Shown here one piece after another: positions 15,302-63,525 of a stretch of 64,000 nt of DNA (position 1 is the first letter of the stretch; each line of letters opens with the position of its first letter). The position numbers were made by a program, and so were the translations under genes. The stretch lies in contig CAVRJO010000001.1 of NCBI GenBank assembly GCA_963722255.1, positions 640,001 through 704,000 on the forward strand, given 5' to 3'. This DNA is from Candidatus Babeliales bacterium (lineage in GTDB: Bacteria > Babelota > Babeliae > Babelales > JANWKD01). The notes beneath the pieces were generated by a model, which saw nothing but the letters and a program-made list of their open reading frames with translations, was not told the DNA's origin and ran no database searches.

Positions 15302-15900
15302 TCTCTACGGGTACAATTCCCCGCGGCTTGCCGCGTAGTCAGATAAAAAAATGGAATAAATAAAAAGTCCTGATAAATTGGGAGAATGAGTAAATTAAGT
15401 AGGTTTATATGTATCATATAGTTTGTCCAGCAAAATATAGGCGAGCGGTTTTTACAGAGGAAGTAGACAAAGTATTGAGGTTGGTGTGTCTTGAGATAGA
15501 AAAACGTTATCAGATAGAGTTTCTAGAAATAGGAACAGATGGGGATCACGTTCATTTTCTTGTGCAGTCCGTACCGACGTATAGTCCTACGAATATCATT
15601 AGAAAAATAAAAAGTATAACGGCGCGGGAAATTTTCAAACGAGTTCCCGAAGTAAAGAGGCAGCTATGGGGTGGAGAATTTTGGTCTGATGGATATTTCG
15701 TAAACACGGTAAGTAAGCATGGAAGCGAAAAACGAGTGGCAGAATACGTAAAAAACCAGGGAAGGGATTACATGATGTTGCACAAAAAAGACCCTACTCG
15801 TACGCCAAGAGATCTGGGTCAGATGTTCTTCATGTAGATAGAAATCCTTAAAAAAATTCAATACCCCGCTGCTTGCTGCGGGTGAAATTTATTGTTAAAC
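15302..15900 (+). mobile_element. IS200-like element (tnpA only)
   Basis: Subterminal hairpins CCCCGCGGCTTGCCGCG (~15318-15335) and ACCCCGCTGCTTGCTGCGGGT (~15863-15883) flank a Y1 transposase. Ends approximate. Confidence 0.85.
15409..15837 (+). CDS. tnpA: IS200/IS605 family Y1 (HUH) transposase
   Basis: YHIVCPAKYRR, DHVH (HUH), FWSDGYF, YVKNQ. N-terminus looks slightly truncated. Confidence 0.92.
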   Translation: MYHIVCPAKYRRAVFTEEVDKVLRLVCLEIEKRYQIEFLEIGTDGDHVHFLVQSVPTYSPTNIIRKIKSITAREIFKRVPEVKRQLWGGEFWSDGYFVNTVSKHGSEKRVAEYVKNQGRDYMMLHKKDPTRTPRDLGQMFFM

Positions 15901-15904
15901 TTTC

Positions 15905-16000
15905 TTTTTAATAAGATTTTATTTATAAAATGCAATGCCTTTACTACAAATTTTTTTAAATTAGGTATTTTTGACATAAAAATACCTAATTTAAAAAAGT
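15905..16000. repeat. Remainder of modular repeat incl. AGGTATTTTTG/CATAAAAATACCT palindrome
   Basis: Similar to the reverse complement of 51600-51690. Confidence 0.75.
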
Positions 16001-30832: not shown

Positions 30833-32503
<1,671 letters not shown>

Positions 32504-32639: not shown

Positions 32640-33506
32640 ATGAAAAAAATAATAACTTTAGCTTTAATAATTATTTGCGTGGCTCAAAATATTAGCGCCA
32701 ATCAAACAATGTTATATAACGCGTTGTTAAATAATTCTACAGCGGAGATCTGCGCAGCAGTAAAATTAGGAGCGGATGTAAATGTACCAATATATCATAA
32801 ATCTCCATTATTTATCGCAATATCTTTTGGTCATTTTGACGCTGTTAAATGCTTGCTTGAATATGGCGCACAAAGCACTCCTGAGCTTAGCGAATTAGCT
32901 TTAACTAAAGGAGATGCTAAGTCTTCTATTTTGCTTTTTACTTATTATGATACAAAGCTTAGTCATCTTGATAGTGTATTGATAGAAGAAGGGTTAATCG
33001 TTCATTTAGATTTTGAATCTATAGTATCGCTTATTAAAAGATCACCGGATTTTGCACTTTGTATCAGCAGGTCATCTCGAATAATGCAGTACATAATTAA
33101 TAAGATTGATGACTCTAAAGCCTTTTCCGAATTAATTCAACAGATATTAGATTCCGGGTATAACGTGAATGATCTTTGGAGTTTACTACTCTTTACTCAA
33201 GATATAAATATCACGGCTCTTAAGCTTATTATTGAAAAAGGAGCGGATATTAATATCACCTTTGAAGACGAAGACAAATATTGTTGTTCTTGTTGGACGC
33301 CTTTACTTGCAGCAATCGCTTTAGATAATGAAGAAACAGTGAGAATATTATTGGATGCCGATGCTGATATAAATAAAAGCGAGTATCTTTTCGAAAAAGA
33401 TTGTTCTTGTGTATTTCATGGTCAACATTCGCCTCTTGAATTGGCAATAAAAAAAAATAATAAATTTATAATTAAGCTTTTAATAGAGCATGGTGCTTGC
33501 ATTTAA
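32640..33506 (+). CDS. Secreted ankyrin-repeat protein
   Basis: Signal peptide; GADVN, SPLF.A, TPLLAA and SPLELA ankyrin motifs. Confidence 0.88.
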   Translation: MKKIITLALIIICVAQNISANQTMLYNALLNNSTAEICAAVKLGADVNVPIYHKSPLFIAISFGHFDAVKCLLEYGAQSTPELSELALTKGDAKSSILLFTYYDTKLSHLDSVLIEEGLIVHLDFESIVSLIKRSPDFALCISRSSRIMQYIINKIDDSKAFSELIQQILDSGYNVNDLWSLLLFTQDINITALKLIIEKGADINITFEDEDKYCCSCWTPLLAAIALDNEETVRILLDADADINKSEYLFEKDCSCVFHGQHSPLELAIKKNNKFIIKLLIEHGACI

Positions 33507-33600: not shown

Positions 33601-34020
33601 ATGAAAAAACTCATAGTAACATGTATGTTTATAACAATCATTTCAACCTTTATAGCAATTGATGCTAAAACTAAAAAACAAATTTTAAATCGATGCAAAC
33701 TTTTAAGCCATATCAAAATTGCTACATTAAAAAATTTACAAAAATTGGAGCAAGAAGCACATGACGGCGATATTTCAAGCGCTCTTGCCTTATATGAAAT
33801 ATTTGAAATGGAGAAAGACGGAAGAGGGTTTTATCATTCTTCTAATGAAGTCTTTAAAAAATTAAGAGCAATTAACTATATAAATGAACTTGGAAAAGTA
33901 TATTCAACAATTCGCGAAAGCTTTAGCGAAGAAGTTTACGAAGAGTGCAAAGCTATATTTGAAGAAGATGAAGAAAGAAATAAAACCATAGAATATTTAC
34001 TTAATAATCCTATCAGATAA
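33601..34020 (+). CDS. Hypothetical secreted protein
   Basis: Signal peptide (IDA); upstream AAAGGGACT.TT.ATG shared with 37427. Confidence 0.75.
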   Translation: MKKLIVTCMFITIISTFIAIDAKTKKQILNRCKLLSHIKIATLKNLQKLEQEAHDGDISSALALYEIFEMEKDGRGFYHSSNEVFKKLRAINYINELGKVYSTIRESFSEEVYEECKAIFEEDEERNKTIEYLLNNPIR

Positions 34021-34154
34021 TAGCCAAACGTGCACCCGGAAACCTAATACGCAAGCATTAATGTTGAATTGGTGCATATTCGTGTGGGGAGAGGAATCCA
34101 AGGGAACATTGGTGTTCTTTTGGCTTTAGGTCTTTTGACATAAAAATACCTAAA
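34021..34154 (+). repeat. Class I multi-stem structured element, copy A
   Basis: TGCACC/GGTGCA, TAAT/ATTA, CCAA/TTGG and TTTAGGT/ACCTAAA stems; aligns with 34842, 36054 and 57601. Confidence 0.75.
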
Positions 34155-34169
34155 TAATAAAATCCACCT

Positions 34170-34285
34170 ACAGAACAAATAACCAACAGGGCCTCGCAGT
34201 AAAATACGGGCCGTTGTTGGTTTTATACTTGTAGTGTATACTGAGTAAGAATGGTAAACAGATATTTTTATATAAATGGAGTTAT
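34170..34285 (+). promoter_or_regulatory. Repeated terminator-promoter-RBS block, copy 2
   Basis: Highly similar to 32525-32639; TTGTTG-N17-TATACT; AAATGGAGTT. Confidence 0.8.
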
Positions 34286-34837
34286 ATGAGGAAGTTGTTA
34301 GCAATTTTATTATTCGTATATGCCCCAACGAATATTGTATATCCCAATGATTTAATCGAAGAATGGACTGCAAAAGATTTAGCTGAATATACCCTTAAAT
34401 ACATAAACCTGCTCTACATGGAAGAAAATCAATGTGCAGCAAATGATCAATGTAAAGCATATTATAAAGATGATATGTCCGAGTTTGAATCAACGCTAAA
34501 AAAAATTTCCAGTCAAAGACCTGAATTGATACCGGAAGCGCTTGATGAGCTCATTCCCAATGAAAAAAGTAGCAAATTCACTCGAGAACGGTCAGTTGCA
34601 GTTGTAAGCCTTTATTCACGTAATAGAGAAAATAGCAAAAAAAAAGTTAAAGACAAAAATTATACCATTGAAGAAAAACTCGAAGCGAAATATGGAATAA
34701 AAAAAATAGATGGCGTTGAACCAAGTTCAAGCAATTGTAACGCTTGGTCACTTCAAAACCTTTTTAGAACAGCAGATAATGAATGCACACATATTCATCG
34801 CTCTCTCAGGTTTATTCAGAAAATAAAAAATTTATAA
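34286..34837 (+). CDS. Hypothetical secreted protein
   Basis: GGAG RBS, signal-like N-terminus, 183 aa. Confidence 0.75.
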   Translation: MRKLLAILLFVYAPTNIVYPNDLIEEWTAKDLAEYTLKYINLLYMEENQCAANDQCKAYYKDDMSEFESTLKKISSQRPELIPEALDELIPNEKSSKFTRERSVAVVSLYSRNRENSKKKVKDKNYTIEEKLEAKYGIKKIDGVEPSSSNCNAWSLQNLFRTADNECTHIHRSLRFIQKIKNL

Positions 34838-34841
34838 AATA

Positions 34842-34971
34842 TTTCCGCTAGTGCGTCATGAGCCCAAAATCATGAGGCTGCTAAAGCCTCAATGATGTGT
34901 GGTCATATACGCATCCAGGGAACCATTGGTGCTCTTTTAGTTACGGTATTTTGGGTAAACAAAATACTGTA
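34842..34971 (+). repeat. Class I multi-stem structured element, copy B
   Basis: GTGCGT/ACGCAT, ATGA..CC/GGTCAT, TGAGGC/GCCTCA and TACGGTATTTTG/CAAAATACTGTA stems. Confidence 0.75.
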
Positions 34972-34977
34972 GTAAAG

Positions 34978-35100
34978 AATTCAGTCGTACAAAACGTAAA
35001 AAGGGCTCGCTTGATTGGCTGGCCCTTTTGTTATTTATATTCAAATAGTGTATACTGGGTAATATCAGTAAAAGCATATTTTCATGTAAATGGAGTTTTT
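34978..35100 (+). promoter_or_regulatory. Repeated terminator-promoter-RBS block, copy 3
   Basis: CGTACAAAAC...AAAAGGGC...GCCCTTTT hairpin; TTGTTA-N17-TATACT; ATATTTTCATGTAAATGGAGTT. Confidence 0.78.
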
Positions 35101-35979
35101 ATGAAAAAAATCTTATTATTATGCCTAATTCTGTTACCGCAGATATTAAAAGATACGCGATGTTCAGATAAACAAACAAAAGAAGCGACTTACAAAAAAG
35201 TTGAATTTCTTTTCTACCTTGATAAAGATCTAAAGCCCTGGGCCCAAACACAAAATGCCATCGCCGAATTAACAGAAGCATGCCTAGATAATCAACCTAA
35301 GATTCATGATAAAGATGCGATCGAGATACTAAAAAAATACGATATGGTTGATTCTGATGGTGTTATTAACAAATGGGTGTGTGAAGCTGTACAAAAAATT
35401 GAAAGATCATATATCAATTTTGAAAATTTCATAAATTCACTTTCAGACACTCAAGATAAAAACAAACTTTGCGAAGTTGCTGAAGCATTGTACGACTTAC
35501 ACCAATCATACCATTGTAACCCACACACCAAGTTAAACAATCAAATTTTGCAAAAATATGATTTAATTGAACCTGATGGAGCGTTAACCGAAGCTGTATA
35601 CATTAGACTCGAGGAGGCAAGCTCATTCTATGAAGACATTATAGAAAGGGCTCAGGATGATGATGAAGCGTATGATGGTTACCCCGATTTTGTAAAAATT
35701 AAAGAACCATTAATTAACATAATGATTTTAATAAACAATATTATTAATCCAAAATCAAAAGAAAGCGCTTTTGAGCATGCTCGCGCATGGTTTGACATTA
35801 ATAATGCCTATGCAACAAAAAACTTGTTTGTAGATAATACATTTTTACAAAACTACGGACTCATTGATAATAATGGGAAGATCACTCAAGAAGCATATAT
35901 CGCCATAAGTCATCTAAAAACATCAATGAAGATTTTTGATTTTGCACATGTACGACCCGATCGCGGATTTCGCTTTTAA
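35101..35979 (+). CDS. Hypothetical secreted protein with three L.KY.L(V/I)D..G repeats
   Basis: True start MKKILLL at 35101 (RBS GGAG). The track ORF from 34897 reads through the repeat. Confidence 0.78.
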   Translation: MKKILLLCLILLPQILKDTRCSDKQTKEATYKKVEFLFYLDKDLKPWAQTQNAIAELTEACLDNQPKIHDKDAIEILKKYDMVDSDGVINKWVCEAVQKIERSYINFENFINSLSDTQDKNKLCEVAEALYDLHQSYHCNPHTKLNNQILQKYDLIEPDGALTEAVYIRLEEASSFYEDIIERAQDDDEAYDGYPDFVKIKEPLINIMILINNIINPKSKESAFEHARAWFDINNAYATKNLFVDNTFLQNYGLIDNNGKITQEAYIAISHLKTSMKIFDFAHVRPDRGFRF

Positions 35980-36053
35980 AAAAGCAAGTTTATGAAGAAT
36001 GCAAAGAAATATTTGAAGCTGAAGACGATGAAAAATAAAAAATTTATAAAATG

Positions 36054-36195
36054 TTTCCGGTAGCGCGTTATGAATCTGGAATTTTGATGCGTCGGCATCA
36101 ACAATGGAATGGTTCATATATGCGCGGAAGAGCATTCCACCAGCATGGTGGTGTCCTTTTGGTTTTAGGTATTTTTGACATAAAAATACCTAAGG
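36054..36195 (+). repeat. Class I multi-stem structured element, copy C
   Basis: GCGCGT/ATGCGC, TATGAATC/GGTTCATA, TTGATGC/GCATCAA, CCACCA/TGGTGG and TAGGTATTTT/AAAATACCTA stems. Confidence 0.8.
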
Positions 36196-36244
36196 AAAAT
36201 AATTTGTGGCCAATAGAGAGATACATAAGAGAAGAATCTCTTAT

Positions 36245-36326
36245 GGGCCCTTTTGATATTTAAATTCTAATAGTGTAAACTAGGTAATATAAGTAATACT
36301 ATATTTTCATGTAATATGGAGTTTTT
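36245..36326 (+). promoter_or_regulatory. Repeated promoter-RBS block, copy 4
   Basis: GGGCCCTTTTG; TTGATA-N17-TAAACT; ATATTTTCATGTAATATGGAGTT. Confidence 0.7.
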
Positions 36327-36875
36327 ATGATGAAAAAACAGCTTTTTTCTTTCCTCGCTCTCTTAAGTTTAGCTACATTCTCTATTCATAGTTCAGTATT
36401 TGATAGATTAGATGAATTTATGGAAGCAGCATCTAAAAAAGGTACTGAATATTTAGAGAAAGAATTCGCACGAGAAAAGAAAAGAAAACATAATCAAGCG
36501 GTGCGCATTTTAACAAAGATAAATAGAAAGCATACTCGTGATTTTGAATGTCTTAACAAGACAACTGACATGTCTAAAAGAAACTGTCTTGCTTTCAATA
36601 CTCACACAAAAAAAGAAAATGATCCTTCAATCTATTTTGAACAAATTAAGGAACATCGCAAAAAAACTGAAAGTGCTGAGTTTGATCTCGATGAAAATGA
36701 AAATACCGATCCAAATTTAGATGCACAAATAATTAATGAAAAAATGAACCGTTTGCAAGAAGAATACAAACGACTCTTTAACGATGTAATTCATGCTACA
36801 CGGAGTAAAGAACGTAAAAAATCAGATAAAAAAACTACAGAAATAAGACAAGGTCGTACCATCATTATCAAGTAG
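36327..36875 (+). CDS. Hypothetical secreted charged helical protein
   Basis: Signal peptide (IHS); basic stretch REKKRKH. Confidence 0.75.
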   Translation: MMKKQLFSFLALLSLATFSIHSSVFDRLDEFMEAASKKGTEYLEKEFAREKKRKHNQAVRILTKINRKHTRDFECLNKTTDMSKRNCLAFNTHTKKENDPSIYFEQIKEHRKKTESAEFDLDENENTDPNLDAQIINEKMNRLQEEYKRLFNDVIHATRSKERKKSDKKTTEIRQGRTIIIK

Positions 36876-36879
36876 ATAT

Positions 36880-36943
36880 AAATAAAATGGGCTCGCAGTA
36901 ATAATGCGGGCCTTTTTTATTCTATTAATATATATGGAATTTT
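36880..36943 (+). terminator. Shortened copy 5 of the terminator-RBS block
   Basis: GGGCTCGCAGTAATAATGCGGGCCTTTTTT closely matches the groEL terminator core. Confidence 0.75.
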
Positions 36944-37372
36944 ATGAAAAAATTTATATTATTTACTTCTTTAATCTTACTTATTTTCCAACAAAATATA
37001 ATTTCTTCTGAACCACAAACAGATGCCTATGAAAATGCATGTAGAAATTATGAAATATTTGCACGCAATGCAATTATAATTCTAAATAACGTTTATGGAA
37101 CATCAACGTTTACTAACAAACATTATTTGGCAGCAGAAGAAGAATTAAAAGAAGCATGCAAAAAAAATGAGTGTACCATAACAAATCTAGAAAGCCGCAT
37201 TCTATTACAAAAACATGAATTAGTCGATGCTCACGGTAATGTCAAAGAAGAGGTATGTACAGTTTTTAACCATTTAGAAAATAACCAACTTGAATTAGTA
37301 GCAGAAGAAAATTCAGATACTACTTTTGAAATAAAACTAAAAAAAGCTAAAAATAAAAGAGAAGAATACTGA
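36944..37372 (+). CDS. Hypothetical secreted protein (one L.K..LVD..G domain)
   Basis: Signal peptide; ACKKNECTIT...LLQKHELVDAHG. Confidence 0.75.
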   Translation: MKKFILFTSLILLIFQQNIISSEPQTDAYENACRNYEIFARNAIIILNNVYGTSTFTNKHYLAAEEELKEACKKNECTITNLESRILLQKHELVDAHGNVKEEVCTVFNHLENNQLELVAEENSDTTFEIKLKKAKNKREEY

Positions 37373-37730
37373 AGATTAATTAATTATATAATCATATTAT
37401 TTCATATAACAATAAAGGGACTTTTCATGAAAAGACTTTTACTATTCACACTTTTATGCGCTTCGCACAATACTTTTTGTTTAAAACAAGAAGATGCACA
37501 AAGTAATAAAAAGTCCGATGAAAAAGTTGGTGCACTTTTAACGGATATGATTAGAGCTAAATCAAGAAAAGAATGTAAAGAAATTGGTATGGCATATTAT
37601 GATCTGCACAGAGCATGTGAAGACAATGAATGCAAGGTAACTGATGAAACAAGTAAAGACATATTACAAAAATATAATCTTGTTGACTCTGAAGGTGCTC
37701 TTGAAGATGAAACTTGCAACTCTTTAGAAT

Positions 37731-38642
37731 AGACCTCTTCTGAAACTCATTTAACCAACTCAAAATTATAGATACCCGCAATAAGATTGAAACGGAGCCC
37801 AAATCTTTTTCGTCGATTGCGATATTTGTCAGCAACTATTTTAAAACGTTTTATCATACCAATTACATGCTCATTTAAAACACGCTGGCTTGATAATTCT
37901 CTATTTCGTTGTTTATCTGTTAATGTTAAAGGATTTTTTTTACTTTTTTTCTTTGGCATAGAAGTATTATTATGAATTTTTTTTAGACCTAAATAACCTG
38001 TATCTGTAAGAACTTCAGTAGATTTTGCGAAGTGAATTTTTGAAGTTTTGAAGAGTTTAAAATCATGTCGTTTACCATCTGAAAAATTTGTACAAACAAT
38101 TTCTTTTGTTTTTTTGTTTACAACTACCTGAGTTTTTATAGTATGACGTTTTTTCTTACCGGAATAAAATTTCCGCTGTTTTTTTTAGGACGTTCAATAG
38201 GACTTTCAGTTGCATCTATTAAAATAACTTCAAATTCATTATCGCTTTTCAGTAGCGCTTTTCTGCCAGGCAATCTAAATTCTTTGCTTTGAATAAGAGT
38301 ATTTTCAACCCATCGTATTGCTTCAAATGCATTGCTTTCAGCAATGCCATAACTTGTCGCAATATGAAGATACGTTCGATATTCCCGTATATATTCAAGA
38401 GTCATCAAAAGCATTTCTTCAATACTGAGCTTATTTGGACGTCCTCCCTTTGCCTTTTTTATTTTTTGCGCTTCTTTTAAAATAGAAACCAATACTTCAA
38501 ATGTTTTTCGTTTTACTCCAGTTACTCTTCTAAAGTTTTTTTCTGATGAAATTTTTAATTTTTCATACTTCATAATCGCTTACCCTTTTTTTATAAATCG
38601 ATTATGATTATGCCATAAAATTTATAGTTTCAGAAGAGGTCT
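37731..38642 (-). mobile_element. IS5-family (ISL2-like) insertion sequence
   Basis: Perfect 17-bp TIR AGACCTCTTCTGAAACT / AGTTTCAGAAGAGGTCT; 3-bp AAT target duplication. Confidence 0.92.
37747..38573 (-). CDS. IS5-family DDE transposase in two frames (A8 run at ~38179-38186)
   Basis: HTH region and IDATESPIERPKK; a -1 shift continues QRKFYSGKKKRHTIKTQ...TDTGYLG...RVLNEHVIG.IK.F. Confidence 0.85.
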
Positions 38643-41593: not shown

Positions 41594-44500
41594 TTAGAGC
41601 GGCGGGAAGGATAAATTTGAAAGATTATTTGGAACTGTACTTGATACATTTGCTAAAAATTGTTGATACGTATTTGTTACGAAAACATAATTAATATCAT
41701 TATTATATGCAGTATTTTGAATAATTAAATTAGTGTTTGACGATGCACTTAATCCTCTTCCTGAAGAAAAGCCAGGCAATCCTGCAGCAAGTGTAGGGCC
41801 TGCAACACCAAATATTTCATTGTTTCTTATTATACCATTTGAAGGGAATATATACGCTAAGAATGTTTCTTCATTAACTGTAGAACCATTAGGATTTGAG
41901 GCTACTGCAATATAACGACCACCTCGTGACCAGCTCACTGCATTATTAGTTGCCCCATGTGTAACATTACTAATTGAAGAAAGTGATGCACCCGTATACT
42001 TTAAAGCACGAATATCAAAGCCTCCTGTACCTGCAGCCCCAACAATTATAGCATATTGCGCATCTGAAGCCCATTTAACACCATTAACATTACCTCCGTG
42101 TGAAAATGATGTTATTGGAACCAATGAAGAACCAGTGAAACTTGCTACTTGAACTTCTGGGCCTGATCCCGTAGTAGCACCAAACAAAATTGTTCTGCCA
42201 TCAAGTGCCCAATTAACACTAGTAACTGCAGGAATTGAAAGTGATGCAACTATTGTTAACGTAGTACCTTTTGAGAACTGTAACACAACTGGTCCGGCAG
42301 CGATAAATTCACTATCCGGTGACCAATCTATTGCCGAAGCTCCAAGATTACCATTTGATGCTACGATATTTAGAGCTGACCCGGTAAACTCAAGAACAAC
42401 TACTTCAGGATCAGGAACTGCTGCAAAAGAACTTTGATTATCTGAATATGCAATAAACTCTCCACTATGAGACCAAGCCATCCCCCCCGTAAATACCAGT
42501 GTTGGCGCAGATGCAACAAAATTCAACGAGCTACCATTAAATTGGTAAACAGAAATTGTTCCCACTGTACCATTATTTACTCCAACTGCTAAATATTGTC
42601 CATCAGGCGACCAGGATACTGCTAAGGGCGTTCCTACAGTAGTCACTGATGCAACTCGAACTAAATCATTACCAACAAATTTAACGACAGCAACATTTGA
42701 TGGTAATGATGCTATTGCAAGAAATTTATCATTCGGAGACCATGCAATAGCTTGAAGAGTAGTAGTTCCGGATAATGATGGCAACCCACCACTCGTTAAT
42801 GTTGTAAATGTATATTGCATTTGAATACCAAATGGTTGTGCATTTGATGTAGTTGTTGAATTACTAATTTGATTGTTCATTATAACATCAGCCTGCTCAG
42901 TTGCACCAATTAGTAGCCCTGTTGCTGTATTTCCAGAAAAAGTTGCTGATGTACTTGTCGCATCAATAATATTATCTTCAAATCTATTATTACCACCTGA
43001 AACTGCACTAATACCAAATGCATTTCCATTAGTTGCTGCAGTATTATTTATCGTAGACATATTAATTATGTTTGAAAAACTATTTATTAAACTAATTCCG
43101 GCACTTGTATTATTTGAAAAAACTGAATTAGATACACTACCATTGCTTGCAGACAATAAGGTAAGACCTGTTCCATTCGCAACAAAATCCGATTCGGTAA
43201 TCGTAAAATTGATTATTGGAGAACCAACCGTACCATTGAAAAATGCACCTATACCAGAAGTACGTATCGTTACATTTTCTAAAATTACATCTGTTATAGT
43301 ATCATTAATTTCAATCCCATTAGCGGTAAAATTAGAAATAACCCCATTTTCAATAAGCACCGTATTTGTTCCAGGTCCCACAGCTATTCCATTTACCCCT
43401 GGTACACTATTTCCTTGAGTAAGTGTGGCACATTGCAAATTTAAGGTAACATTCGAAGCATTAATGGTAATTGCTGATGAAGCTATTAATGGACTAAAAA
43501 CAATATTATTTGCCAGAATATACACACCCGGTTGTGTAATAGTAAATCCTGTAGTATCTACCATAGCTTGCGTGATTAATACTGGAGAACAAACAGTCTG
43601 ATTCAATATAGCATTTAACACAGTAAATGTTCCATTAAAATCTATTGTCAACGTACTCTTAATATCAGTCAATGATGTAAACACACCATTGAAATCTACA
43701 AACGTTTGATTACAGCATGCATTCAATGCAGTAAATGTTCCATTAAAATCTATTGTCAACGTACTCTTAATATCAGTCAATGATGTAAACACACCATTGA
43801 AATCTACAAACGTTTGATTACAGCACGCATTCAATGCAGTGAATGTTCCATTAAAATCTATTGTCAACGTATTCTTAATATCAGTCAATGATGTAAACAC
43901 ACCATTGAAATCTACAAACGTCTGATTACAGCATGCATTCAATGCCGTAAAGGTACCATTAAAATCGGTGGTTATAGTTTGTTTGATATCAGCTAAAATA
44001 GTCCAAGTGAAATCAAAATCGTTTTGAATAGTAGCACAGCAGGTTGTTACCGTTGATTCAATGCTCGTTAACGTAGTATAAACACCAGAAAGATCACACG
44101 ATCCTGTAGAAATAGCAGCGATAGCAGTGAATGTTCCGTTGAAATCAGTGGTTATTGTTGTTTTGATATCATTCAATGTAGTGTAAACGCCTGAGAGATC
44201 ACAAGCGCCAGCGACGATTGCCGCGATTGCAGTGAAGGTGCCATTAAAATCTGTGGTGATAGTTTGTTTGATATCAGCTAAAATAGTCCAAGTGGAATCA
44301 AAATCATTTTGAATAGTAGCACAACAGGTTGTCAACGTATCATTAAGATCCGCTAAAATTGTCCATGTGTTTATAAAATCTGTCGATACCGTCACCTTGA
44401 TATCATTAAGAACTGTAAATGTGCCTTCAAAATCATTTTGAATAGTAGCACAACAGGTTGTCAACGTATCATTCAGGTCCGCCAAGATTGTCCATGTGTT

Positions 44501-45085
44501 TATAAAATCCGTCGATACCGTAATTTTAATATCATTCAAAACCGTAAATACACCCTGAAAGTCTTTTTGAATTATAGCGCAACATTGCACAACAATTTGT
44601 GTCAAACGATTAAGTAGTTGCAGCACTTCAGCAAAATCGCACTCTAAAACAGTACCTACGGGGGCTCCATCGGTATTTCCGGGTGCATCAGGACGCGGTG
44701 CTTTTCCAAATTTTGTTACCTGTATTAACTTTTCAATAACAACCGGTAAAGCTTCTGCCAAATCTTGAACATCTAACAATGTAGCGCCATTTTCTAATTG
44801 TTCATGACAGGTCAAAACACTGTAGGGCAATTCATCAACCGTATTATTTTCACAAGCATCATCAATAACAATCCTTAATAGTTCATCAAGGCGTAACCCC
44901 ATAAGATTTTCCGGGGCAACAAGCATCTGCATCGTAGTATCTTGACTGCTCTTTGATTTAGGTAGAGTTTCGTATCGTTCTCGTTGTGCATTATAAGAAA
45001 TGTGAGTTTTTGATAAAACCGGTTGCAATACAACTGAAATAAGTGCCAACAAAAAGACTTTTTTAGCAAATTTTGTACGATTCAT
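41594..45085 (-). CDS. Large secreted fibre-like protein: Cys-Cys coiled-coil repeats, right-handed beta-helix and WD40-like propeller
   Basis: Signal peptide (probable start MNRTKF after GGAG); DF.GTFT.L..I repeats with CC; ITQPGVYIL...ITINASNVTLNL beta-helix start; about seven WSPDG-like blades. Confidence 0.85.
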   Translation of the reverse strand: MNRTKFAKKVFLLALISVVLQPVLSKTHISYNAQRERYETLPKSKSSQDTTMQMLVAPENLMGLRLDELLRIVIDDACENNTVDELPYSVLTCHEQLENGATLLDVQDLAEALPVVIEKLIQVTKFGKAPRPDAPGNTDGAPVGTVLECDFAEVLQLLNRLTQIVVQCCAIIQKDFQGVFTVLNDIKITVSTDFINTWTILADLNDTLTTCCATIQNDFEGTFTVLNDIKVTVSTDFINTWTILADLNDTLTTCCATIQNDFDSTWTILADIKQTITTDFNGTFTAIAAIVAGACDLSGVYTTLNDIKTTITTDFNGTFTAIAAISTGSCDLSGVYTTLTSIESTVTTCCATIQNDFDFTWTILADIKQTITTDFNGTFTALNACCNQTFVDFNGVFTSLTDIKNTLTIDFNGTFTALNACCNQTFVDFNGVFTSLTDIKSTLTIDFNGTFTALNACCNQTFVDFNGVFTSLTDIKSTLTIDFNGTFTVLNAILNQTVCSPVLITQAMVDTTGFTITQPGVYILANNIVFSPLIASSAITINASNVTLNLQCATLTQGNSVPGVNGIAVGPGTNTVLIENGVISNFTANGIEINDTITDVILENVTIRTSGIGAFFNGTVGSPIINFTITESDFVANGTGLTLLSASNGSVSNSVFSNNTSAGISLINSFSNIINMSTINNTAATNGNAFGISAVSGGNNRFEDNIIDATSTSATFSGNTATGLLIGATEQADVIMNNQISNSTTTSNAQPFGIQMQYTFTTLTSGGLPSLSGTTTLQAIAWSPNDKFLAIASLPSNVAVVKFVGNDLVRVASVTTVGTPLAVSWSPDGQYLAVGVNNGTVGTISVYQFNGSSLNFVASAPTLVFTGGMAWSHSGEFIAYSDNQSSFAAVPDPEVVVLEFTGSALNIVASNGNLGASAIDWSPDSEFIAAGPVVLQFSKGTTLTIVASLSIPAVTSVNWALDGRTILFGATTGSGPEVQVASFTGSSLVPITSFSHGGNVNGVKWASDAQYAIIVGAAGTGGFDIRALKYTGASLSSISNVTHGATNNAVSWSRGGRYIAVASNPNGSTVNEETFLAYIFPSNGIIRNNEIFGVAGPTLAAGLPGFSSGRGLSASSNTNLIIQNTAYNNDINYVFVTNTYQQFLANVSSTVPNNLSNLSFPPL
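43623..43946. repeat. Three near-identical 108-bp coding tandem repeats
   Basis: Units start at 43623, 43731 and 43839 and encode TLTIDFNGTFTALNACCNQTFVDFNGVFTSLTDIK(S/N). Confidence 0.9.
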
Positions 45086-45263
45086 TTTTTCTCCTACTTC
45101 TTTTTTTTTAGTTAACAAACTATCCAGAAAATTAAAAAAAGCAACATTTTTTTCAAGGCTTTAAAAAATAAATTAAAAAAAGCTATACTTGAATAAAAAT
45201 ATTTTCTGTTATACTATTTATTAAAATTAGCATAGCTTTAATAACTATTTTTTGGAAAAATTT

Positions 45264-51455: not shown

Positions 51456-51489
51456 ACAATGCACCACAAGAGATATTTATATCATTATT

Positions 51490-51733
51490 TCCTTTAAGCA
51501 CAACCGTTGAAGGCTCTGCAGCATATCCCAGCGGGATATGGGAGGAGCCGCCTTTTGTGCGACAGAGATTCCTAAGATACTTCTTAGGTGTCCTTTTGGT
51601 TTTAGGTATTTTTGACATAAAAATACCTAATTTAAAAAAATGTATTAAAGGCATTGGGCTTACAATATCTTTATAAAAAAAATCTTATTAAAAGGAATTA
51701 GGGTTATAGGGATTTTATAGCAGAAAAATACCT
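51490..51733 (+). repeat. Full class II modular structured repeat
   Basis: GCACAA-CCGTTGAA-GGCTC..GAGCC-GCCT-TTTGTGC-GACAGAGATT-CCTAAGA/TCTTAGG-TGTCCTTTTGG-AGGTAT hairpin-terminal module. Confidence 0.85.
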
Positions 51734-54733: not shown

Positions 54734-55963
54734 ATGTTTAATAAAAAAGCAATAATCATCGTAGGTCTTGCAGTAGCATTTACTAATACTATACAAGCTA
54801 AAAATCCTAAGAAAAAAGTCCCTCAAGAAGGATATATTTCTAACTATGGCCCTCTTCAAAATCTTTGGCGATTTTACAACTATGCCTCAGGACATAATCG
54901 TAAAAAAGAAATCCTAGAAGCCATTAAAGGTAATGACAAAGAAGCTTTCAAAAAAAATTTTATGGAAGGCGATCTTGTTAATCAAACCGATATAGTCGTT
55001 GAAATCATTGTTAATAACAACCTTGAGCTTTTACAACTGGTTGATGAAGAATTACATATTGATATTAAAGCCGTTGTAGAGAAGCATATAGCTCACAAAA
55101 AAAATGCTGCTCATCAGATCCCTCATAAACTTGTGGAAAGACATGGATCAAAATCTATTGCAATGCTTTATTTTTTAAACGATCATGGAATAGAAATTGA
55201 TGTAAAAAATGAAGAGGGTAACACCATTGCACATACCGTCAAAGATAAAGTTTTAGTAGATGAGGTTGTCGGAAAAATTGTTGATGTAAATTCTCGCAAT
55301 AATCAAGGAGAAACTCCCGTTTTTATTGCAACAAAAAATAATGATTTTGAAAAAATAAAAATGCTAACTACTGCTCAAGCAGACGTCAATATTCCTAATA
55401 ACGAAGGTATAACACCGGGTCATATTGCTGCTTCAGGTAACTGTTCTGCAGCTTGCGCAAAAATTATCTTTGAATCAAACATGGACCCAAAGGCTGTTAA
55501 TCAAGAAGGGATCTCTGTAAAAAAAACTTTGGGAAATACACGACACAGAGAATGCATTAAAGGACTTGGAAAAATAAAAGACAAACAAACTTTTTCTACC
55601 TATAAAAAACGATGCACACATCTTACTACCATTGAACATTATTTTAAGCAGGGTTATTTAAAAGGGCTCGAACAAAGAATTAAAAAACTTAAAGAAGAAA
55701 AAAACCATTTAATAGATTTAGAAACAACATTAAGCGAAAAAGAATTAGCGCAACGTAAACAACTTCTAGAAGAACAACTTGCTCGTTTAGAATTGGAAAA
55801 ACAAAAGATTGAAGAAAATCGTAAAAATAGACAAGCTGAGCTTCATGAATTTGAGGAACTAGAGGAAGTTCTCAACCAAGAGATTCTACCACAAGAGGAT
55901 ACAACATCTGTTCATGAAATTGCAAAGAAAGAGCAAGAAAAAAATCCTGATGATTCTCATTAA
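54734..55963 (+). CDS. Secreted ankyrin-repeat protein with C-terminal coiled coil
   Basis: Signal peptide (IQA); GNTIAH, GETPVF and GITPGH motifs; Glu/Lys-rich tail. Confidence 0.82.
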   Translation: MFNKKAIIIVGLAVAFTNTIQAKNPKKKVPQEGYISNYGPLQNLWRFYNYASGHNRKKEILEAIKGNDKEAFKKNFMEGDLVNQTDIVVEIIVNNNLELLQLVDEELHIDIKAVVEKHIAHKKNAAHQIPHKLVERHGSKSIAMLYFLNDHGIEIDVKNEEGNTIAHTVKDKVLVDEVVGKIVDVNSRNNQGETPVFIATKNNDFEKIKMLTTAQADVNIPNNEGITPGHIAASGNCSAACAKIIFESNMDPKAVNQEGISVKKTLGNTRHRECIKGLGKIKDKQTFSTYKKRCTHLTTIEHYFKQGYLKGLEQRIKKLKEEKNHLIDLETTLSEKELAQRKQLLEEQLARLELEKQKIEENRKNRQAELHEFEELEEVLNQEILPQEDTTSVHEIAKKEQEKNPDDSH

Positions 55964-57191: not shown

Positions 57192-57410
57192 ACTAAGGTA
57201 TTTTGTTTGCCACAAAGTTTCTTTATAAAGGTATTGCATGCACAATACCTTTAATATATTTTTTTAACTTAGGTATTTTTATGTCAAAAATACCTAAAAC
57301 CAAAAGGACACCTAAGAAGTATCTTAGGAATCTCTGTCGCACAAAAGGCGAGCCCTCGCATATTCCTTCGGAATATGCGAGGGCTCTTCAACGGTTGCGC
57401 TCAAAGGACT
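57192..57410 (-). repeat. Class II modular structured repeat, minus-strand copy
   Basis: Reverse complement closely matches 51490-51680, with a different inner stem (GAGCCCTCGCATATTCC/GGAATATGCGAGGGCTC). Confidence 0.85.
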
Positions 57411-57421
57411 TTTCATTTTTA

Positions 57422-57583
57422 TTACTGGATCCCCCAGCCGACGCTTATCCAGGCCTTCCTACTTCGCTCCCATGAAGCTTCGAAGGACATGTCCGGCCTG
57501 TTCTTCGAAGTCTTGACGTAGTAGAACTTGGCAAGCTTTGTCATCCAGAGACCTTCACTTAGGTGAAGGTCTCTGGATGACAA
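57422..57583. repeat. CTGGATCC/GGATGAC palindromic element with nested mini-hairpins
   Basis: Shares AGCCGACGCTTATCCAGGC.TTCCTACTTCGCTC with 4328-4362; ends in the long palindrome TGTCATCCAGAGACCTTCAC-TTAG-GTGAAGGTCTCTGGATGACA. Confidence 0.82.
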
Positions 57584-57600
57584 TCGGCAATTTATAATAT

Positions 57601-57836
57601 TTCTCCGGTAGCTACACGTGGTCCCGAAAACTTAATGCTGTAAGCATTAATGTTGAAGTGGGCCATATTGGAGCGGGAGAGCAATCCAACAGCATGTTGG
57701 TGTCCTTGTAGTTAAGGTATATTGGACACACAATATACCTTTAATAAAAAAAATTTTGACATAAAAATACCTTAGTAAAAAAAATCTTATTAAAAGGAAT
57801 TAGGGTTATAGGGATTTTATAGCAGAAAAATACCTA
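57601..57836 (+). repeat. Class I structured element copy D plus terminal module
   Basis: TGGTCCC/GGGCCA, TTAATGCT/AGCATTAA, CCAACA/TGTTGG and AAGGTATATTG/CAATATACCTT stems, then AAAAGGAATTAGGGTTATAGGGATTTTATAGCAGAAAAATACCT. Confidence 0.8.
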
Positions 57837-57927
57837 AGAAAAAAATTCTTGTTACTTATCAAGAAAATTGTATACCATGTACTAACTAAAATAATCCACA
57901 ATGTTATTGTCTTATACAAGGAACAAA

Positions 57928-62889: not shown

Positions 62890-63525
62890 TAACGCCCCCG
62901 TAGACCGGGGGGCTTGACGGCTGTTAGCAGTCCCAAGGACTGCCAGATTATAAACTTTGACTATATTTTAAAATTGACCTTCTTCATCAAAACCTTAGGC
63001 TATCCAGCTGTTCTTGATTTTTCACGTAGGCTTTAACATTGCTCCAATTCATGATCCTACTGTTGAAACCGCATATCCCCTTGCCCAAAACTTCTCGCCA
63101 TTAAAATTTCTTTTGCCGACCGCCAAATTGTCGCGCAACTGCAATCGCACTTTTACCTTTTATATATCCAACTATCTCTGCTATTGAATATTTCGGCGGA
63201 ATACTTATCAGCATATGCACATGATCTTGTACCATGTGGCCTTCCAAAATCTTACTTTCCCTTTGTCCTGCCAATTCATGAAATATTGGTCCTAAGAATT
63301 TACGAATTTCTCCATAAAGTTTCTTTTTTCTATATTTTGGAACAAATACAATATGGTATTTGCAGTTAAATTTAGAATGGCTTAAACTTTTAAATGATGT
63401 TTCCATATATATTTTTTTTCGAGCCGTCACGCCCTAAAAAAATATATCATTGGAAACATTTTTTTTACACTTGAATCTAAAGGCCTAGCCTTGAAAGTCT
63501 CACTAGTCAAACTAGTGGTTTACCT
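62890..63525 (-). mobile_element. tnpA: IS200-like element with frameshifted tnpA
   Basis: SH...CKYHIVFVPKYR, DHVH, KGKS; downstream FWARGY.VSTVG and YVKNQ in shifted frames; end hairpins GCCCCCG..CGGGGGGC and CACTAGT..ACTAGTG. Confidence 0.85.

Follow-up and report, generated by a model that had tools for sequence, protein, structure and literature searches.

Dependentiae are obligate parasites of protists and have small genomes. Among the known bacterial repeats, repetitive extragenic palindromes (REPs) carry a conserved 5' GTAG ahead of their hairpin, and bacterial interspersed mosaic elements (BIMEs) are mosaics combining different repeat classes in alternating orientation. ERIC/IRU, BOX, Correia/NEMIS and the Rickettsia RPE are modular repeats of transcribed regions, 100-160 nt long and stably folded, some of which carry promoters or processing sites. 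REPINs are described as two inverted REPs with a spacer (PMC3337134; PMC3116915). Here, we analyzed a window of 64,000 nt from a Candidatus Babeliales bacterium (contig CAVRJO010000001.1; G000:C1:640001-704000 in our numbering, with G000 being a genome of 1.62 Mb, 34% G+C and two contigs), in which a preceding inspection of the letters alone, called the sequence-only reading in the following, had noticed four copies of a multi-stem element. Judged from sequence, this element is a ~150-base repeat family of Babeliales, previously undescribed, and it is a good candidate for a new small RNA. Like REPs, BIMEs and REPINs it is extragenic, multi-copy and often located behind gene ends, it has strand-specific hairpins with compensatory changes, it forms class mosaics in alternating orientation and inverted doublets with a spacer, and it is targeted by insertion sequences (IS).

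A repeat family of the Babeliales

The four copies, c1 to c4, are present at 34021-34153, 34842-34970, 36054-36193 and 57604-57741, all on the + strand, and share one architecture as originally claimed. All stems read from the letters were found in the sequence, i.e., TGCACC/GGTGCA, TATGAATC/GGTTCATA, TGGTCC/GGGCCA, TGAGGC/GCCTCA, TTGATGC/GCATCAA, TTAATGC/GCATTAA, CCACCA/TGGTGG, CCAACA/TGTTGG and both last hairpins, together with the linkers TCCG(G/C)TAG, GAGAG and TGTCCTTTTGG. The copies align over ~150 nt with a mean column identity of 69%. An nhmmer search with the four-copy profile returned 21 hits in the genome at E<=1e-3, 15 of them full-length, and the covariance model R1 was built from these 15 full-length G000 copies. 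Searching G000 with R1 gave 32 matches at E<=1, composed of class I, class II and fragments. Class I has 15 copies in G000 with R1 scores of 118-179 bits, and class II has at least 7 with scores of 29-49 bits. The two classes have the 3' half in common (AGAG-AUUCC, a hairpin, GGUGYCCUUUUG and the last hairpin), while the 5' hairpin domain differs. A unit measures ~140-175 nt and begins with a class-dependent 5' rod, formed by helices P1-P4 in class I and by other hairpins in classes II and III, followed by a conserved purine-rich junction, CGGGAGAG..AUCC, a short hairpin P6 and the 3' module.

With R1, the family was detected in 10 of 41 relatives with 1-25 hits per genome, spread over six families of the order. 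In a sample of the phylum 25 of 151 genomes were positive at E<=1e-4, a lower bound owing to the stricter filters of that search, and all positives are labelled as belonging to the same order. The sequence-only reading had proposed searching Rfam and Dependentiae/CPR genomes. R1 finds the family in other Babeliales/Dependentiae genomes, and no Rfam family matches, so the element is unannotated there. Rfam 15 (4227 families) gave no match at the gathering cut-off in the whole window. For 33950-36300 with E up to 10 only chance-level hits appeared, all below half their cut-offs, and seven diverse loci yielded, with E up to 0.1, a single 28-bit hit, which is unrelated and lies outside the element. 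When 185,579 species genomes were scanned with a loose pattern, the 80 matched loci checked comprised 4 true and 76 chance loci, and these 4 true loci lie in metagenome-assembled genomes (MAGs) labelled 'Candidatus Babeliales' or 'Candidatus Dependentiae'. Viral contigs scanned with a 24-mer gave no match. In our searches, the family appears confined to Babeliales/Dependentiae. The literature text accessible to us on repeats, structured RNA, miniature inverted-repeat transposable elements (MITEs) and noncoding RNA of Dependentiae/Babeliales held nothing relevant. A described REP, MITE or Rfam match, which the sequence-only reading had named as evidence against itself, was not found in what could be searched.

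Covariation supports a common fold with a pseudoknot

For the 15 G000 copies, RNAalifold predicted from a MAFFT alignment a long irregular hairpin (P1-P4), the short P6 and a terminal hairpin P7, with 39 pairs of which 21 are compensated. In this structure-blind alignment the fold, taken with the pseudoknot described below, brings 95.8% of 597 cells into standard pairs, compared with 79.4 +/- 1.1% in shuffles and 33-50% when the partners are slid. Two-sided changes occur in 22 of 40 pairs versus 14.3 +/- 1.6 in shuffles, and 0 of 500 shuffles reach 22. Among 108 copies from ~11 genomes, in an alignment that was fitted to R1 and hence leans towards the model helices, 92.3% of the cells are paired versus 66.1% (shuffled) and 35-40% (slid), and 39 of 40 pairs covary; in both sets the copies are kin, and cell counts do not equal independent events. 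Selection on the fold, as had been proposed, is supported by pairing and covariation in both alignments, and covariation became stronger in the larger one rather than being lost. An all-against-all mutual-information scan of the columns recovered the same helices and nothing else convincing.

A new pseudoknot emerged from the 108 copies, in which the 4-5 nt immediately 3' of P6 and the nucleotides that open the P7 loop vary in concert. Taken alone, it is paired in 90.7% of the cells (76.4% shuffled; 24-49% slid) and has 57 cells altered on both sides versus 16.5 in shuffles, and R1 was not fitted to it. At least ten variants can be read: UGCCC/GGGCA, UGUCC/GGACA, CUCC/GGAG, CGCCC/GGGCG, UGUAU/GUACA, UGCAC/GUGCA, UGCUC/GAGCA, UGUC/GACA, UUGCC/GGCAA and GUGC/GCAC. 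Crossing P7, this helix is a pseudoknot of the H type or else an alternative helix. A further helix from the RNAalifold prediction, P5, joining GGG after P1 with CCC after P6, was rejected. It is paired in 77.7% of the cells versus 70.7% in shuffles, and it was dropped because it is no better than its slid controls, which reach 43-80%, with slides of +1 to +3 giving 74-80% (108 copies). The CCC claimed by P5 is the same CCC that is used by the pseudoknot. A closing helix TCC(G)/(C)GGA was also discarded, as its columns are near invariant without covariation and G003 variants alter one side only.

The architecture is kept across 38%-63% G+C. A small extra hairpin, P8, stands 3' of P7 in the relatives G003, G004, G032 and G037; its stems covary (GCCC/GGGC, GGCC/GGCC, GCGC/GCGC, GCAC/GUGC, CCAC/GUGG), and its loops GCAUA, GCGUA, GAGUA and GCACA all fit the GNRNA pentaloop pattern. 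TCCGG varies in G003 without a visible change of a partner. The GTAG ahead of P1 in class I is replaced by TGAG, TTAG, CTAG or GCAG in other classes. Peptide-coding short open reading frames (ORFs) within the element, considered by eye, were dismissed since covariation of stems would not keep a peptide.

The fold is kept on one strand

In the paired columns of the 108 copies, 3142 Watson-Crick cells stand beside 174 G-U, 41 A-C and 235 other mismatches. G-U is thus ~4 times as frequent as A-C, which is what G-U would read on the opposite strand, and the strand-specific G-T wobbles of the sequence-only reading recur in these model-fitted kin copies as 174 versus 41 cells. With RNA parameters, the sense strand has a lower minimum free energy than the complement in all 51 full-length copies compared, with means of -53.7 versus -44.8 kcal/mol and a shuffle z of about -5; with DNA parameters this holds for 44 of 51. 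The G-U excess and the stability of the sense strand show that selection acts on one strand as a single strand.

Four features lean to RNA, namely a position preferring G-U (pair 28/78 is G-U in 13 of 15 G000 copies), loops of GNRNA type, the pseudoknot and the conserved unpaired purine-rich junction. That the element functions as a single strand follows from the fold together with its strand specificity, and from its being conserved in several families and over a range of base compositions. The sense strand is kept foldable, most likely as RNA.

Copies in the window and their genomic arrangement

The copies and related features of the window are as follows.

34021-34153, + strand: class I copy c1, R1 score 125.9 bits
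c1 rod, + strand: P1 34023-34028/34080-34085; P2 34030-34037/34069-34077; P3 34041-34043/34063-34065; P4 34045-34050/34055-34060
c1 3' part, + strand: purine-rich junction 34086-34097; P6 34098-34112; pseudoknot 34113-34116 with 34137-34140; P7 34126-34136/34143-34153
34842-34970, + strand: class I copy c2, R1 score 118.1 bits, GGGAGAG junction removed by a 13-column deletion
c2 rod, + strand: P1 34851-34856/34909-34914; P2 34858-34865/34899-34906; P4 34873-34878/34886-34891
c2 3' part, + strand: P6 34915-34929; pseudoknot 34930-34933 with 34954-34957; P7 34943-34953/34960-34970
36054-36193, + strand: class I copy c3, R1 score 146.8 bits
c3 rod, + strand: P1 36063-36068/36120-36125; P2 36070-36077/36109-36117; P3 36081-36083/36103-36105; P4 36085-36090/36095-36100
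c3 3' part, + strand: P6 36137-36151; pseudoknot 36152-36155 with 36177-36180; P7 36165-36176/36183-36193
57604-57741, + strand: class I copy c4, R1 score 176.3 bits
c4 rod, + strand: P1 57611-57616/57669-57674; P2 57618-57625/57658-57666; P3 57629-57631/57652-57654; P4 57633-57638/57644-57649
c4 3' part, + strand: P6 57686-57700; pseudoknot 57701-57704 with 57725-57728; P7 57714-57724/57731-57741
57261-57419, - strand: class II copy, R1 score 39.3 bits, head-to-head with c4, other repeats inserted between the 5' ends
51479-51638, + strand: solitary class II copy, R1 score 45 bits
5954-6136, + strand: class II-like copy whose 5' hairpin is longer, R1 score 28.9 bits
30122-30208, - strand: fragment, P7-type hairpin alone with a GGGCA loop
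47922-48027, + strand: fragment, P7-type hairpin alone
15954-15988, + strand: fragment, P7-type hairpin alone with a TTGACA loop, ~120 nt past the gene of an IS200-type transposase (15409-15837) and not part of this IS
36047-36052, + strand: -10-like hexamer TAAAAT before c3, 3 nt ahead of TCCGG, putative promoter part
34835-34840, + strand: -10-like TAAAAT before c2, overlapping the stop codon of ORF 34286-34837, putative promoter part
57593-57598, + strand: -10-like TATAAT before c4, putative promoter part

All 15 class I copies of G000 are intergenic and 13 of them adjoin at least one gene 3' end; 3 G000 copies point away from both neighboring genes. It had been noted that three copies sit just after stop codons, which is confirmed for c1, c2 and c3. 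The stop codon at 34018-34020 directly abuts c1, the end of ORF 33601-34020 standing in place of the usual 5' TCCGG; that at 34835-34837 lies 5 nt upstream of c2, and the stop of a frameshifted paralogue ~16 nt upstream of c3. These three copies belong to a tandem array of paralogous small exported-looking proteins, each copy being preceded by a stop codon and followed by an intrinsic terminator that is homologous among them, and hence they are located inside 3' untranslated regions (UTRs) and should be present in mRNA. In the neighboring cassette (36875-36945) the terminator follows straight after the stop without an element. By position, the suggested role as a 3' element fits c1-c3 only; genome-wide, copies lie in either orientation to genes.

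The array itself (33601-37732) comprises no fewer than six small genes whose starts resemble signal peptides and which have C-terminal motifs in common. Each of them has a near-identical TGTATACT-type promoter, a AAATGGAG ribosome site and, as terminator, GGGCC..GGCCC. Pfam gave the array proteins no match above cut-off, and the paralogue at 35101-36038 looks frameshifted at an A-run near 35975. Elsewhere in the window, ankyrin and WD40/beta-propeller proteins of eukaryote-like type are encoded at 32640-33506, 41594-45118 and 54734-55963; such proteins are typical of intracellular parasites.

Neighboring copies follow a striking rule. Within 500 nt of each other, the 108 copies form 25 head-to-head arrangements with their 5' ends facing, no tail-to-tail and one tandem arrangement. 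The arms of a pair are mostly of different classes (II + I in G000, III + I in G032). The distance from start to start is 18-28 bp in six head-to-head pairs. The spacing is 18 and 19 bp in two pairs of G000, 26-44 bp in five pairs of G032 (including 26, 26 and 28 bp) and 19, 19 and 7 bp in three pairs of one Dependentiae MAG. In the remaining pairs the starts are 70-380 bp apart, often with other repeats between. In G130, a genome of 50% G+C, direct tandem arrays were found, with a 300-nt period in 4.6 copies and a 393-nt period in 2.9 copies. Their units have 63% G+C and keep every feature of the element, and the four array loci sit among unrelated housekeeping genes. Of the 21 ORFs flanking these arrays, those with Pfam hits are housekeeping, and none recurs as a partner.

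Several other repeats accompany the element. The stretch at 57455-57580, which separates a class II from a class I copy, contains two further repeat types, one very like enterobacterial REPs (…CGACGCTTATCCAGGCC..CTAC) and one a perfect 17-bp hairpin with GGATGACAAT at its end. Hairpins ending in ATGACA are located 20-80 nt upstream of many copies in several genomes; ATGACA of these REP-like hairpins was considered as a -35 element and rejected, as only ~10 nt separate it from the -10-like box, a spacing that does not suit a -35 element. A repeat unit AGGTATTTTTCTGCTATAAAATCCCTATAACCCTAATTCCTTTTAAT… and chains of P7-like hairpins stand beside class II 3' ends at 57750-57850, 15870-15950 and G000:C1:422440-422560. 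At locus L027 of G004 (C6:27584-27793 / 31958-32167), a 210-nt inverted repeat, 96% alike, is made up of one element copy together with 50 nt of flank on its 5' side. This pair brackets 4.2 kb encoding RNase HII and five ORFs without assigned identity, a segment that may be invertible or recombined.

Promoter-like and terminator-like signals

A TANNNT hexamer starts at -11 to -8 relative to the T of TCCGG 33 times among 48 anchored copies, while the other 51 offsets have 0-6 each; counted were the 48 of 108 copies with a TCCGGTAG-type anchor and enough flank, the other 60 rows being dropped. Examples of this -10-like box are TAAAAT in G000, TAAGTT in G004 and TATAAT in some copies of G032 and of MAGs. 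In the tight pairs, the center is near-palindromic around TTATAA and thereby presents a -10-like box on both strands. In E. coli, overlapping -10 elements on opposite strands are reported to give divergent starts 7-29 bp apart, mostly 18 bp (bioRxiv 10.1101/2020.01.31.928960). The geometry of the tight pairs fits this bidirectional picture.

In a consensus scan, P6 followed by UGUCCUUUUGG was terminator-like in c3, as was the reverse strand of P4 in c2. The two best promoter matches of the region (11/12) are formed in c1 and c3 by TTGACA of the P7 loop, 17 nt and TAAAAT/AATAAT, pointing towards the next gene. Overall, the number of sites is no higher than in shuffles, with 13 promoter-like sites versus 12.3 and 3 terminator-like sites versus 1.4.

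Mobility and possible enzyme partners

Enzymes that could act on the element were counted in G000, in the 10 positive genomes, which include G000, and in 31 negative ones.

TnpB (PF07282): none in G000; 1 of 10 positives; 6 of 31 negatives
Y1 HUH transposase (PF01797, Y1_Tnp): 11 copies in G000; 8 of 10 positives; 12 of 31 negatives
Reverse transcriptase (PF00078): present in G000; 1 of 10 positives (G000 only); 3 of 31 negatives
IS110 (PF01548): none in G000; 2 of 10 positives; 3 of 31 negatives

Across these genomes no TnpB, RAYT, IS110 or reverse transcriptase tracks the element, with RAYT having been tested in G000. Four Y1 proteins, standing for the 11 PF01797 hits, reach 107-152 bits with the IS200 model NF033573 (cut-off 55), and with the RAYT model NF047646 they score 28-32 bits or nothing (cut-off 80). 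The 11 Y1 loci with 700-nt flanks contain, according to an nhmmer search with the element profile, one lone P7 hairpin only, outside an IS. No Y1 gene is flanked by element copies, and the end hairpins of two G000 IS200 families, read directly, bear no likeness to the element. These 11 genes comprise two IS families of ~630 and ~655 bp plus two single genes; the two IS200-type genes in the window are located at 15409-15837 (+) and 63014-63373 (-, with one in-frame TAA). The reverse transcriptase of G000 never adjoins a copy. It is encoded by three identical 448-aa ORFs (G000:C1:85847-86467, 189896-190516 and C2:248930-249550) and one decayed copy, which probably represent group II introns, and ORFs of this type were found in no other element-positive relative.

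The copy c4 is 100% identical to G000:C2:269075-269216 from TCCGG to an A-run past P7, with flanks ~75% alike. The identical core in differing flanks indicates that the core was recently copied or converted as a unit, and this block begins exactly at TCCGG, i.e., with a sharp 5' edge. No autonomous parent was found. The ORF splitting a copy at L026 (G004:C5) was rejected as such, as it belongs to an IS of the IS4/Tn5 family (positions 1028-2478) that carries its own 19-bp perfect inverted repeats and a 9-bp duplication, CATATACGC, around a 462-aa transposase and is inserted into the element. The 4.2-kb segment between the inverted copies of G004 was also rejected, having no transposase inside. 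The IS4/Tn5-type IS splits an element copy exactly at CATATACGC, and the same junction occurs at three loci (also L032 and L033), which suggests that this IS targets the element. REPs likewise serve as landing sites for other IS. IS110-family genes stand directly beside copies at no fewer than four loci in G003 and G004 (e.g., G004:C6:303342-305071 and G003:C1:534622-535427), where they may have inserted site-specifically into or next to the element; in both IS110-carrying positives, most copies have no adjoining IS110 gene.

No target duplications were seen at the outer ends of 11 pairs, a weak test as the boundaries are not sharply defined, and no transposase lies between pair arms. Comparison with G001 of the same genus yielded no clean empty site; the gene next to the compared locus is ~70% identical and the left neighbor differs, and in place of the 535 nt of repeats of G000, G001 has overlapping convergent genes. 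No replication-strand bias is clear (15 copies on + versus 7 on -), with the GC skew of the + strand being negative almost throughout. Positive skew is limited to C1:840-905 kb, while C1:0-840 kb and the whole of C2 are negative, from which contig 2 is probably reversed relative to contig 1 and an origin or terminus would lie near C1:840 kb.

Possible roles of the element

The reading we favor, with about even confidence, is that the element may be a dispersed modular structured-RNA module, made from its own -10-like box or inside longer transcripts, that binds a protein or processes or stabilizes itself. Transcription could take two routes. The RNA would start from the TANNNT box that ends 3-6 nt ahead of the TCCGG start, and in tight head-to-head pairs the AT-rich near-palindromic TTATAA core could serve as a common bidirectional promoter. 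Other copies would be transcribed passively, inside 3' UTRs as for c1-c3 or in long array transcripts. In the 3' module, the UGCCC-type stretch pairs with the GGGCA-type P7 loop as an H-type pseudoknot or alternative helix, and the RNA may act as a compact protein-binding or self-processing module. Its repeat-like behavior implies that the element multiplies like selfish DNA, and at the DNA level it would spread as selfish intergenic repeats do, by duplication, conversion and array formation, with decay into fragments. A bolder version, to which we assign a low probability, sees in the family a new functional-RNA class of Dependentiae, i.e., a self-processing ribozyme or the RNA subunit of a ribonucleoprotein, either made as divergent pairs from bidirectional promoters or excised from arrays and 3' UTRs, in which the pseudoknotted 3' module would be the handle and the 5' rods would provide specificity.

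Several observations weigh against the favored RNA module. Hairpins and G-T wobbles would serve a single-stranded DNA (ssDNA) substrate equally well, and truncated copies, lone hairpins, arrays among housekeeping genes and the patchy distribution fit selfish DNA just as well. Neither a conserved -35 element upstream of the copies nor a canonical terminator 3' of the element was found. The -10-like box is missing from c1 and from the array units of G130, most G003 copies have no TANNNT, and the -10 peak is partly inherited, because the flanks are AT-rich and common to copies of one genome. The orientation is inconsistent, with ~10 G000 copies in sense behind a gene end and 9 facing a convergent gene end, and no partner protein was found. 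By geometric reasoning, a pseudoknot stem of 4 bp with 2-3 crossing loop nucleotides would be sterically tight, for which reason P7 and the pseudoknot helix may alternate instead of coexisting.

The readings partly overlap, and the leading rival is a non-autonomous mobile element working as folded ssDNA, in the manner of REP/REPIN/BIME elements or the palindrome-associated derivatives of IS200/IS605 (PATEs), whose sense hairpins a Y1 HUH transposase would recognize in trans, with transposition maintaining the fold. We hold it to be possible, though less likely than the RNA module. Dispersed, patchy, multi-copy and extragenic occurrence with truncated copies, inverted pairs and arrays would be expected from it, G-T is tolerated on a single strand only, and the greater stability of the sense strand also with DNA parameters (44 of 51) suits it. 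PF01797 is found in 8 of 10 positives versus 12 of 31 negatives with 11 copies in G000, GTAG is conserved ahead of the first helix as in REPs, and REP-like hairpins adjoin many copies. REPINs, for comparison, are reported to be inverted REP pairs with a spacer (PMC3337134). However, the four Y1 types of G000 are IS200 (107-152 bits) and none reaches the RAYT cut-off, the IS200 end hairpins are unlike the element, no Y1 gene is flanked by copies, and 2 of 10 positives have no Y1 hit in genomes that are 85% and 98% complete. GTAG gives way to TGAG, TTAG, CTAG and GCAG in other classes, pair ends show no target duplication, and the strands are used without clear replication bias (15 + versus 7 -). 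We know of no HUH substrate for which seven helices with a pseudoknot and GNRNA loops would be required, along with a preferred G-U and linkers that are unpaired and conserved. The ssDNA/HUH option of the sequence-only reading is thereby narrowed, not settled.

Two further alternatives keep the element as RNA. A new self-cleaving or self-processing RNA, whose units would be cut from arrays or 3' UTRs at or near TCCGG and whose conserved unpaired nucleotides and pseudoknot would build the active site, appears improbable to us. In the G130 arrays (periods of 300 nt and 393 nt) the units are not preceded by an AT-rich promoter-like stretch, the block copied not long ago begins sharply at TCCGG, conservation extends to the junction nucleotides and to the pseudoknot, and c1-c3 lie inside mRNAs, all as such an RNA would predict; yet with E up to 10 Rfam still gave no match to a known ribozyme family, TCCGG varies in G003 without a visible partner change, and many orphan structured RNAs have such features and are non-catalytic. 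An equally doubtful possibility is cis-acting punctuation of transcripts in the manner of REP, ERIC and Correia, as a 3' exonuclease block or a weak two-sided terminator, some copies having an outward promoter. The location of 13 of 15 G000 copies at a gene 3' end, the terminator-like P6 + UGUCCUUUUGG in c3 and P4 reverse strand in c2, and the TTGACA-17-TAAAAT/AATAAT matches (11/12) of c1 and c3 that point at the next gene agree with it. However, promoter-like and terminator-like counts do not exceed shuffles (13 vs 12.3; 3 vs 1.4), the U-tracts are short, and the TTGACA loop is just one of ten or more covarying variants. A plain stabilizer needs no conserved linkers, classes or pseudoknot, and the head-to-head rule (25 vs 0) would be left unexplained.

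If the favored reading of an RNA module holds, the element would be a ready candidate for a new ribozyme or ribonucleoprotein and would also illustrate how bidirectional promoters can drive small RNAs in pairs. Should it be an ssDNA substrate instead, it would far surpass every known one in elaborateness. Its value would be greatest if expression and function were demonstrated. For the genomes themselves, the element accounts for inflated intergenic regions and marks insertion hotspots of IS4 and IS110, and the R1 model can be used for the annotation of Babeliales genomes.

Comparison with known systems

The family combines clean covariation, a pseudoknot and conserved junctions across several families of an order, and yet it is repeat-like. 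Orphan structured RNA motifs, as found through comparative genomics, resemble it in having a covarying multi-helix fold, conserved junctions and a restricted lineage; unlike these, the element is repeat-like, with 5-25 copies per genome, pairs, arrays and fragments. Among catalytic RNAs, hammerhead, twister, twister-sister, pistol, hatchet and HDV-like ribozymes were absent from the Rfam hits (E<=10 at 33950-36300; E<=0.1 at seven loci). The HEARO/IscB and TnpB omega RNAs and the IS110 bridge RNAs are similar in being ~150-200 nt long, pseudoknotted, present in many copies and in some cases proteinless. In contrast to these, the element has no Rfam HEARO match, G000 has neither TnpB nor IS110, and bridge RNAs of IS110 are located at the recombinase gene, in its non-coding end, while the element does not track IS110. 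A retron RNA or a group II intron RNA would be linked to a reverse transcriptase, whereas PF00078 is found in one positive genome only and never beside a copy.

Of the DNA elements, a DDE MITE needs target duplications and terminal inverted repeats that match those of a parent IS, and the single unit has no terminal inverted repeats. Integron attC sites are single imperfect hairpins with R''/L''-L'/R' cores that end promoterless cassettes on the 3' side, whereas the element is multi-hairpin and dispersed in both orientations. IS200/IS605 ends and PATEs would share the reliance on folded hairpins of one strand, and G000 has 11 IS200-type Y1 genes; however, its IS200 ends are unlike the element, it has no TnpB, and no conserved arrangement of cleavage site and guide was found. 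ERIC/IRU, BOX, Correia/NEMIS and RPE, as commonly described, are set apart as long imperfect palindromes or as carriers of terminal inverted repeats, while the element has a multi-domain fold, no terminal inverted repeats in the single unit and a covarying pseudoknot.

REPs are single hairpins of ~25-35 nt, compared with 140-175 nt, seven helices, a pseudoknot and conserved unpaired linkers here. They are linked to RAYT, whereas the Y1 types of G000 score as IS200 and none as RAYT, and the arms of element pairs differ in their inner domain, unlike those of REP/REPIN doublets. Compared with REPs and REPINs point by point, GTAG precedes P1 of class I but is variable elsewhere, inverted doublets prevail by 25 to 0, and the unit is not a single palindrome. 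By analogy, the element would thus behave most like REP/BIME/REPIN mosaics, with each module being far more elaborate and pseudoknotted.

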